A DNA stretch of 7,566 nt from a virus (Duplodnaviria; Heunggongvirae; Uroviricota; Caudoviricetes). How positions within the stretch are numbered: position 1 is the first letter of the stretch; every line of letters starts with the position of its first letter. The stretch lies in the IMG/VR virus record IMGVR_UViG_2698536559_000017. One strand, 5' to 3'. Below, in pieces: positions 4,621 to 5,145 of the stretch. The notes beneath the pieces were generated by a model. That model was not told where the DNA came from. It worked only from the letters and a program-made list of their open reading frames with translations, and searched no databases. Position numbers and translations under genes: made by a program.

Positions 4621-5145
4621 ATGACAACACTGACACTGAACCACAAAAGCGGGGACATGAAAAGCCGGGGCGGAACACCTGACAAAACCACATCGGCGCA
4701 TAAAGTGATGCCCGGTAATCAGAAGAAGGCTCAACAGCGCAATAAACAGAAGTCCACAGAAGCGACACCGTGGCGGCATATGACCAGACGCCAGCGCAAA
4801 AACCGCCGACGGGTTAACCGCCTGATTGAGCTGTGGCCTGACTTATTCAACAGGGAAGCACCGAAGCCGCTTAAGGTGGGGATATTTGACGACCTGATGC
4901 AGGATATCGCCACCAGGGGGATGAAGTTCGGACCCGGTACATTACGTGCGGCGCTGGCATCTTATGCGCAGTGTCCGCGCTATTACCGTGCCCTGATTGC
5001 TGGTGGGGCGCGTTACGACCTGAAAGGCCAGCCATGTGGCGAGGTGACACCACAGGAACAGCAGGACGCAGAAACACGACTGATGGCGCTGAATGAAAGG
5101 CGCAAACGTCAGCGCCAGGCAGCAAAGGAGAAGGCAGGCGCATGA
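4621..5145 (+). CDS. ProQ/FinO-domain RNA-binding protein with a basic N-terminal extension
   Basis: Residues about 65..150 (LIELWPDLFNREAPKPLKVGIFDDLMQDIA ... TLRAALASYAQCPRYYRALIAGGARYDLKGQPCGEVTPQEQQDAE) closely parallel the ProQ N-terminal FinO-like domain as I recall it (FPHCFS ... PLKIGIFQDL ... [35 protein letters not shown]). The first ~60 aa are Lys/Arg/Gln-rich. The start is uncertain: ATG 4621 is taken, with ATG 4657 and 4708 as alternatives. Confidence 0.8.
   Translation: MTTLTLNHKSGDMKSRGGTPDKTTSAHKVMPGNQKKAQQRNKQKSTEATPWRHMTRRQRKNRRRVNRLIELWPDLFNREAPKPLKVGIFDDLMQDIATRGMKFGPGTLRAALASYAQCPRYYRALIAGGARYDLKGQPCGEVTPQEQQDAETRLMALNERRKRQRQAAKEKAGA

Follow-up and report, generated by a model that had tools for sequence, protein, structure and literature searches.

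In this study, we examined an open reading frame (ORF) of the FinO/ProQ family at positions 4621-5145 (+ strand) of a 7,566-nt stretch of DNA from a caudoviricete virus record (IMG/VR IMGVR_UViG_2698536559_000017), the whole of which is referred to as the window. The 174-aa product is a genuine member of the FinO/ProQ family. It is probably a FinO-type RNA-binding protein that belongs to the post-replication module of a phage-inducible chromosomal island (PICI), and its likeliest ligands would be the intrinsic terminator of its own transcript (T1) and, after that, a short minus-strand RNA that ends at a second terminator (T2). The FinO family ranks as one of the three main classes of bacterial small RNA (sRNA) chaperones, and the mobile-element members that have been studied, FinO and FopA, each revealed a specific antisense-RNA control circuit.

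The ORF runs from ATG to TGA and its product is identical to RefSeq WP_062863894.1; the identical locus in Escherichia coli 2015C-4136CT1 carries a gene labelled 'ProQ/FINO family protein' in RefSeq. The ProQ/FinO domain proposed in a preliminary description of the window was recovered by Pfam PF04352, which matched residues 62-166 with positions 5-108 of its 109-position profile at 86.6 bits (E = 1.4e-24; gathering score, 27). When the protein was compared by sequence with solved structures, the matches were the N-terminal domain (NTD) of ProQ (5NB9, E = 8.7e-13), FinO (1DVO), NMB1681, Lpp1663 and RocC, with none outside FinO-domain proteins. An AlphaFold2 model built on 34 homologues has a predicted local distance difference test (pLDDT) score above 90 over residues 55-165 and a long helix (144-173) at its C-terminal end. 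Superposition of this model on the Protein Data Bank (PDB) by Foldseek gave FinO-domain structures as all of the best 26 matches (E from 7e-7 to 1e-4), the next match standing at E = 3.2, so that an unrelated fold is ruled out. The closest structure is FinO itself (1DVO), with a root-mean-square deviation (rmsd) of 1.9 Å over 102 columns and 30% identity. On the evidence of Pfam, pLDDT and Foldseek, the FinO domain occupies codons 61-166 (4801-5118), with the long C-terminal helix reaching up to the stop codon.

Within the family, the island protein appears to form a distinct subfamily that is neither FinO proper nor ProQ proper, because its scores fall far below both NCBIfam cut-offs, it has no ProQ C-terminal domain and it never occurs on a plasmid. 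The highest-scoring NCBIfam model is that of FinO (NF010317), which aligned with residues 35-170 at 69.5 bits vs. a cut-off of 136; the ProQ equivalog (NF003434) scored lower, at 60.9 bits vs. 127. No second Pfam domain was found in the 174-aa protein, which lacks the linker and C-terminal Tudor-like domain of ProQ and ends after one helix.

The N-terminal extension (codons 1-60, 4621-4800) is conserved, basic and disordered. The basic tail of about 60 residues noted in the preliminary description was borne out, since residues 1-60 contain 15 Lys/Arg vs. 3 Asp/Glu, for a net charge of about +12, and the extension proved to be conserved and constrained. Residues 1-48 have pLDDT below 50 and are predicted to be disordered, and the extension ends in a near-invariant TPWRHMT and a basic block with K60 and R64, both of which are invariant. 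The sequence common to homologues reads MTxLTINRKPKGIY…DKTTSAHKV…TPWRHMTKRQRKNRRR. Two observations favour the first ATG as the genuine start codon: homologues keep the N-terminal residues (MTxLT[IL]N[RH]K...), and in 65 of 83 distinct loci the match begins at residue 1. A codon comparison of seven lineages gave ratios of non-synonymous to synonymous substitution rates (dN/dS) of 0.22-0.61 for tail codons 1-53 and 0.17-0.37 for the core; the pooled polymorphism-type ratio (pN/pS) was 0.48 in the tail and 0.41 in the core, and a net positive tail was kept in all seven lineages. These values show that the tail is translated and constrained and that tail and core are both under purifying selection. 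The view that the extension is an unusual addition to a ProQ-like core did not hold, since an N-terminal extension with positive charge before the FinO domain is the published architecture of FinO (PMC12001967) and the FinO model outscores the ProQ model. A basic tail, a FinO domain and a C-terminal helix make up a FinO-type architecture, with nothing new in the layout.

A class of 114-aa proteins without the N-terminal tail was also observed (L012-L014, 5974-6345). Its genes stand alone beside a dndB-E DNA-phosphorothioation cluster and a reverse-oriented AlpA gene, a setting that looks like the remnant of an eroded island, and at one of these loci a 57-aa ORF abuts the start of the FinO gene, suggesting a frameshifted tail.

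Previous studies have described the residues by which FinO domains hold RNA. R58, Y70 and R80 of ProQ are needed for binding every ligand tested (PMC10168233). In the RocC-RocR crystal structure, a pocket of Tyr87, Arg97 and Gly52 buries the 3′-terminal nucleotide of the intrinsic terminator, and Arg75, on an N-capped helix, touches the hairpin phosphates (PMC9674577); these four, like R58, Y70, R80 and G37 of ProQ, are indispensable for binding RNA (PMC10168233, PMC9674577). By phmmer alignment and family alignment, ProQ K35, G37, R58, R69, Y70 and R80 correspond to K85, G87, R109, R120, Y121 and R131 of the island protein, which, together with the match to 5NB9, agrees with the earlier suggestion that the core parallels the ProQ NTD. 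Across the 34 homologues, K85 and R131 are invariant and conservation reaches at least 90% for G87, R109 and Y121; R120 does not figure in the list of conserved columns of that alignment. The pocket for the 3′ nucleotide (Y121, R131 and G87) and the hairpin-contacting arginine (R109) are thus retained.

A protein search returned 321 relatives, spread over Escherichia, Shigella, Salmonella and Citrobacter. Each has PF04352, and every name supplied by the sources is a ProQ/FinO-family or ProP-effector label. Of 5,426 complete E. coli genomes, 1,079 contained homologous DNA; the 1,543 places where it occurs are all chromosomal, with as many as 9 in one genome. The subfamily is very common in E. 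coli, being present in about 20% of complete genomes. The most widespread island type (L006-L011, ~7560-12498) encodes a FinO protein, P0081, that is indexed in ~4,000 assembly blocks; there, the FinO gene is followed by a decayed PerC gene and then by three very large ORFs (837-918 aa) that have no Pfam domains, except for an SLT lytic-transglycosylase domain in one variant.

The genomic context was compared in a table of 100 loci (83 of them distinct) drawn from RefSeq, public assemblies and IMG/VR, of which the IMG/VR scan gave most. A primase gene lies upstream of the FinO gene at 70 of 75 distinct loci, being of the P4-alpha type at 43 and of the DUF927 type at 27. A PerC gene starts at the FinO stop codon at 54 of 82, and a decayed PerC gene occurs further on at nine more. 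A full gene for a single-stranded DNA-binding protein (SSB) lies directly upstream at 36 of 75. The conserved unit is hence primase/origin, FinO and PerC, in that order, and SSB is facultative. In the window, the SSB gene (4121-4564, +; PF00436 at 57.6 bits, TIGR00621; C-terminal DDDLPF tip) directly precedes the FinO gene, and the start of the PerC-family gene (5142-5414, +; PF06069 at 114.9 bits) overlaps the FinO stop codon as ATGA, an arrangement in which the FinO gene is probably translationally coupled to PerC. Terminator prediction on the + strand gave none from the SSB start up to 5453 and a strong one 3′ of PerC, at 5453-5477; therefore, the geometry fits co-transcription of SSB, FinO and PerC. 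The operon of these three genes put forward in the preliminary description is consequently tenable for the window as regards neighbours and geometry, but SSB does not hold as a constant partner, the constant context being primase and PerC. A search of FinO, PerC, SSB and five other neighbouring ORFs with PADLOC gave no match to known anti-phage defence systems. In a PerC-less lineage (L057-L062, L068-L077; 7534-7782 in L069), an unrelated 82-aa ORF overlaps the FinO stop codon and is followed by a T1-type terminator. We considered this ORF as a diverged PerC and rejected that reading, as neither PerC nor any Pfam family resembles it significantly.

FinO domains bind stem-loops that carry a 3′ tail, as a rule intrinsic terminators (PMC9674577, PMC9977716), and terminators were mapped on both strands around the FinO gene at all 83 distinct loci. 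T1 (5453-5485, +), the predicted intrinsic terminator of the finO-perC transcript, consists of AGGGCCGGAU-CUGAU-AUCCGGCCUU and a U-rich tail and folds with ΔG −16.3 kcal/mol (z −3.1). A + strand terminator lies 200-400 nt past the FinO stop codon at roughly 70 of the 83 loci, a figure summed over 100-nt bins in which one locus may count twice, and within 150-750 nt of it at 62 of 82. The GGCCGG-type stem of T1 covaries among lineages, as GGCCGGGA/UCCCGGCU, GGCCCGGA/UCCGGGCC, GGCCUGGA/UCCAGGUC and GCCGGA/UCCGGC. As far as terminator mapping can tell, T1 is the RNA element most constantly linked to the FinO gene, and it has the predicted shape of a canonical FinO-domain ligand.

T2 (5487-5513, −), a second predicted intrinsic terminator, is found ~15-20 nt beyond T1 and consists of GCCGCCAC-CUCC-GUGGCGGC and U7. 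Its + strand in the window lineage shows an A-run on the 5′ side and no T-run on the 3′ side; therefore, it would terminate minus-strand transcription only. The 94%-identical island L002 has ACCGCCAG/CUGGCGGU and U8 at this position, with two compensatory pair changes. In the major lineage b (L021-type), an unrelated stem occupies the place of T2, again with a minus-strand U-tail, and its basal pair varies among members as G-C, G-U and A-U. Because the genes to the right of T2 are all on the + strand and no conserved minus-strand ORF was found in the T2 region, a transcript that ends at T2 would be short and non-coding. The candidate sRNA of the window is ~56 nt long (5487-5542, −), with a single-stranded 5′ part, T2 and the U-tail, its 5′ end being placed by a candidate minus-strand promoter (5549-5577) with a −35 TTGCGA (5577-5572), a 17-nt spacer and a −10 TAGTAT (5554-5549). 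This RNA folds with ΔG −17.8 kcal/mol (z −3.6), and the candidate RNAs of other lineages are ~66-70 nt long with the same fold layout (z −3.3). The promoter spacing is kept with TTGCGA/TAATAT in L002 and TTGCAA/CATGAT or TTGCAA/CGTAAT in lineage b. Lineage c is cleanly missing the ~85-nt unit from the −10 to T2 and keeps FinO, PerC, T1, orf57 and a palindrome that is described below. Among sampled matches, the cassette of T2 and orf57 never occurred without FinO-PerC upstream. The candidate minus-strand RNA matched no Rfam family. As a general partner of the protein, an RNA from the minus strand of the perC-orf57 intergenic region was rejected, since it is rare and absent from many FinO-bearing islands; it stays a lineage-specific candidate.

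To the right of this cassette, orf57 (5630-5803) encodes 57 aa and is kept across lineages, with MKTKNVRAVLLAREQIERLERI… in the window and MRKASVKPVLLAREQIEALQRI… in L022. It heads an operon with the ORFs at 5796-6656 and 6653-7315, between PerC and the TerS-like genes, and no Pfam, NCBIfam or PADLOC match was found for the ORFs of this operon. Between the candidate RNA gene and orf57 lies an operator-like, imperfect palindrome of 47 bp (5560-5606), whose core, TGTTTCAT[AT]AAT[TC]GCAA, is conserved in three diverged lineages. A FinP-like reading, in which the palindrome would be stem-loop I of an antisense RNA over the ribosome-binding site of orf57, was abandoned because the conserved candidate −35 and −10 put the transcription start downstream of the palindrome and because the changes in L002 break the outer stem with no compensation. 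The palindrome is more likely to be a DNA operator, since its core is kept as sequence in three lineages, and it looks like one at which a regulator would control both divergent units.

Other RNA candidates were set aside. A P1 c4- or P4 CI-type immunity RNA upstream of the Icd-like gene was rejected because Rfam returned nothing at E ≤ 1 in the window or at the gathering score in the island; weak 'microRNA' matches at 3236-3416 are artefacts of the origin palindrome. Motifs of a minus-strand hairpin and T-run in the 5′ part of the FinO gene were dismissed as a by-product of A-rich Lys, Asn and Gln codons; with 5-6 bp, their stems are weak, and a stricter filter left few of them.

On the model of FinO, ProQ, RocC and FopA, the FinO domain of the island protein would clamp the base of a stem-loop and bury the 3′ end of the U-tail of an intrinsic terminator, and such burial would shield the RNA from 3′ exonucleases. 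The basic tail may add non-specific RNA contacts and speed RNA-RNA pairing, as in FinO. The ligand with the better support would be T1, which lies at the 3′ end of the protein's own finO-perC transcript in most lineages, and its binding could bring about post-transcriptional control of PerC and of the FinO protein itself. The second, weaker and lineage-restricted ligand would be the ~56-70-nt minus-strand RNA that ends at T2 and is divergent from the orf57 operon. It is also conceivable, if doubtful, that the protein is the dedicated chaperone of a satellite RNA circuit, which would bind the T2 RNA and/or the 3′ end of finO-perC and set the expression of PerC or of the packaging-side operon.

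Several observations weigh against T1 and the T2 RNA as ligands. The presence of T1 is weak evidence because any operon needs a terminator, and no RNA element is universal to the FinO subfamily across the 83 distinct loci. The T2 cassette is rare: among 5,426 E. coli genomes, 3 have the window type and 38 have the L022 type, and its linkage to FinO could be mere adjacency. Strain ETEC1749 (NZ_CP122712.1) represents the L022 type with the cassette, and O104:H4 C227-11 (NZ_CP011331.1) has FinO-PerC-T1 but no cassette; ETEC H10407 is a further island-bearing strain. The candidate minus-strand promoter was read manually and was not flagged by a consensus promoter scan. When targets of the 5′ region of the candidate RNA were sought within its own island at four loci, the best duplexes fell within the shuffle distribution and no site was shared. 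On the side of the protein, the N-cap Ser-Lys(-Thr) of ProQ, RocC and FinO is replaced by Gly104-Pro105-Gly106 throughout the island subfamily, and Ala113 stands where ProQ has R62; for these reasons, hairpin recognition may differ in detail from that of ProQ, RocC and FinO. In the N-cap region, R109 is at least 90% conserved and the helix begins at residue 105 in the model, but Ser-Lys has given way to Gly104-Pro105.

The lack of a universal island-encoded partner would also agree with targets outside the island, in which case host sRNAs of the ProQ/Hfq class or antisense RNAs of a helper phage would be sequestered or stabilised to manipulate host or helper. In keeping with this idea, the 3′-end pocket suits terminator hairpins in general (PMC9674577), the FinO-family proteins of other elements are known to be used by foreign RNAs, as FinO is by RepX and RocC by RocRp (PMC9977716), and the gene is common to islands of either primase type whose flanking modules differ greatly. 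However, the primary targets of FinO and FopA are narrow and element-encoded (PMC9977716, PMC7491321), and a local role is suggested by the conserved, close coupling of the gene with PerC and T1; we therefore regard outside targets as rather unlikely.

A role in replication has still less to recommend it. The protein might bind structured RNA primers or hairpinned single-stranded nucleic acid at the origin together with primase and SSB, or might act on an antisense RNA that sets the replication level, much as FopA promotes pairing of the antisense RNA Inc with the mRNA of repZ, the plasmid replication initiator (PMC9977716, PMC7491321). The position of the gene after the primase and iteron field, and often after SSB, speaks for such a role. 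Yet terminator mapping at the distinct loci revealed neither an antisense nor a structured RNA that keeps its position within or close to the primase gene or the origin, SSB is absent from about half of the loci, and the gene is coupled to PerC rather than to replication genes. Moreover, no FinO domain is known to act on DNA. This explanation is accordingly held to be improbable. That the gene is a mere passenger of plasmid or phage origin, decaying or without function, is very improbable and largely refuted, for although integrated FinO genes often erode (PMC9977716) and the tail-less 114-aa class stands alone in an eroded remnant by a dnd cluster, most loci match from residue 1, dN/dS (ω) is well below 1 in tail and core, the RNA-contact residues are conserved and relatives occupy up to nine places per genome in about a fifth of complete E. 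coli genomes.

The reading of the protein as a FinO-type RNA-binding protein of a PICI rests in part on the nature of the island. Positions 3512-7566 of the window are 100% identical to E. coli 2015C-4136CT1, where the island (L001) spans ~15 kb between rcnR and thiM, inside the size range of PICI-type satellites (~10-18 kb); the 94%-identical island occupies a different chromosomal site in strain EC12. The order in L001 is integrase, DUF6387, AlpA, YlcI/YnfO (opposite strand), Icd-like, an ORF, DUF4222, primase, (origin), SSB, FinO and PerC, after which come small ORFs, two TerS-like ORFs and a second PerC. The integrase has Arm-DNA-bind_3 and Phage_integrase domains, and AlpA matches PF05930 (E = 5e-16). 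The adjacent TerS-like ORFs (19423-20333 of L001) match phrog_57, one at E = 2e-13 and the other weakly, and are candidate packaging-redirection genes. The second PerC-family gene is at 22551-22847 of L001, and antirepressor/BRO fragments lie near the far end. The P4-alpha-type primase/helicase gene of the window (1363-3195, +) has D5_N, DUF5906 and Pox_D5 domains and matches TIGR01613 and phrog_864 (E = 7e-192). It is followed by a replication-origin-like iteron field (3194-3430) with TGTTCACC octamers in nested inverted repeats (I1, I2, I4, I5 and I16). The octamer, which we take to be the iteron bound by the P4 alpha protein, occurs 11 times in the window vs. 0.34 expected, with eight copies within 3210-3430, directly after the primase stop codon, and the field is very likely the replication origin of the island.

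No families of phage structural or lysis proteins were found among the island ORFs with Pfam and PHROGs or in the RefSeq annotation of L001, and there are no tra genes on the island. Likewise, psu, delta and sid genes were absent from the window and from the L001 ORFs scanned against Pfam and PHROGs; the element falls outside the P4-like satellites, and its resemblance to P4 is limited to the primase and iterons. Related islands have the same order of integrase, AlpA and primase, and one carries Terminase_2. One lineage has the textbook PICI order, with integrase, AlpA, AntA, primase, FinO, PerC, two TerS-like genes, Terminase_2 and type I restriction-modification cargo. Integrase, AlpA, primase and PerC are also present in EcCIMP1, an experimentally verified island (PMC11773190). 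Judged by gene content, the host element appears to be a PICI-type phage satellite; the satellite origin proposed in the preliminary description is thus upheld by the integrase, AlpA, P4-type primase with iterons and TerS-like genes and by the absence of phage structural genes from the searches above.

Some features of the window lie apart from the FinO gene. The window is mosaic, since positions 1-3511 (Icd-like, DUF4222 and primase genes) are at most ~96% identical to other islands, in contrast with the full identity of 3512-7566 to 2015C-4136CT1. This joint falls in the origin/repeat region, and homology among many islands stops exactly after T1; these non-coding joints seem to be sites of module exchange. 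A 124-nt direct repeat is present in three copies (3532-3655, 3627-3750 and 7357-7480). The last copy is inside an intact 84-aa gene (7312-7566; phrog_1231) with the conserved peptide GEGYA[KN]AHPELISAFMTTAA, and the other two, which lie between the origin and orf118, have decayed, one of them being a pseudogene in RefSeq. The best sigma-70-like promoter of the window (425-452; TTGACA-16-TAAAGT, 10/12 matches) is just upstream of the Icd-like ORF (463-762; 559-762 in RefSeq relatives) and divergent from the YlcI/YnfO gene (58-378, −), and it probably serves as the island's main rightward promoter.

Several known proteins invite comparison. FinO of F-like plasmids (1DVO, NF010317) is the best structural match, is of similar length (174 aa vs. 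186 positions in the NCBIfam profile), is likewise found on mobile elements and also has a basic N-terminal extension. It differs in being encoded on a tra-bearing plasmid with FinP/traJ, whereas the island protein is chromosomal, on an integrase/AlpA/primase island with no FinP/traJ. Furthermore, the two N-terminal tails can be aligned by composition only, and the N-cap is S-H-K in FinO vs. G-P-G here. ProQ (5NB9, NF003434), a global RNA chaperone encoded on enterobacterial chromosomes, is the best solved-structure match by sequence, and its R58, Y70, R80, G37, K35 and R69 are all matched. Unlike the island protein, ProQ has a linker and a C-terminal Tudor-like domain and no N-terminal tail, and its K54 and R62 are replaced here by P105 and A113. 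RocC of Legionella (7RGU, with the RocR terminator) shares 25-30% identity over aligned structure columns; its pocket Y87/R97/G52 corresponds to Y121/R131/G87 and its R75 to R109 (PMC9674577). In contrast, RocC continues into a long C-terminal extension, its targets in trans are competence mRNAs, and its Ser70/Lys71 are Gly104/Pro105 here.

The closest functional analogy for a FinO protein beside a replication module, likened by description, is FopA (YafB) of the IncI plasmid pCol1B9, a FinO-domain protein of a mobile element that has an N-terminal domain of its own and a narrow, element-encoded antisense RNA partner, Inc, which pairs with repZ mRNA (PMC7491321, PMC9977716). FopA is plasmid-borne, and no Inc-like antisense RNA was found near the island primase. 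Likened by annotation, the Enterobacter cloacae PICI AVS0889 has a ProQ/FinO accessory gene on an element with integrase, AlpA, primase and Icd (PMC13612085); that report is limited to annotation and gives no function, conserved synteny or RNA candidate. The same 2026 survey lists a PerC-family gene in another PICI, PIMB10EC27 (PMC13612085), and a review of the family places plasmid-, phage- and chromosome-encoded homologues in an "eclectic" branch (PMC9977716). A literature search on FinO with satellites or PICIs found no functional study of such a protein. The family assignment itself was already known, and our finding confirms a correct RefSeq annotation and does not describe a new kind of system. 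What is added here is the FinO-like architecture, the commonness of the subfamily in E. coli and its fixed place in the order primase, FinO and PerC across two primase types, together with an apparently distinctive G-P-G N-cap and two candidate RNA ligands.

Taken together, these results describe a widespread, unstudied subfamily that has a fixed place in PICI-type satellites and is operon-joined to a PerC-family regulator. PerC relatives affect the expression of virulence islands in enteropathogenic E. coli and Citrobacter. If the island protein controls PerC or a satellite sRNA, satellite induction would be linked to post-transcriptional regulation and possibly to control of host virulence genes. 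Should the protein indeed serve as the chaperone of a satellite RNA circuit, this would constitute an RNA-chaperone-dependent layer, so far undescribed, in phage-satellite biology, and FinO-PerC would be a conserved cassette of post-transcriptional and transcriptional control in about one-fifth of E. coli genomes.

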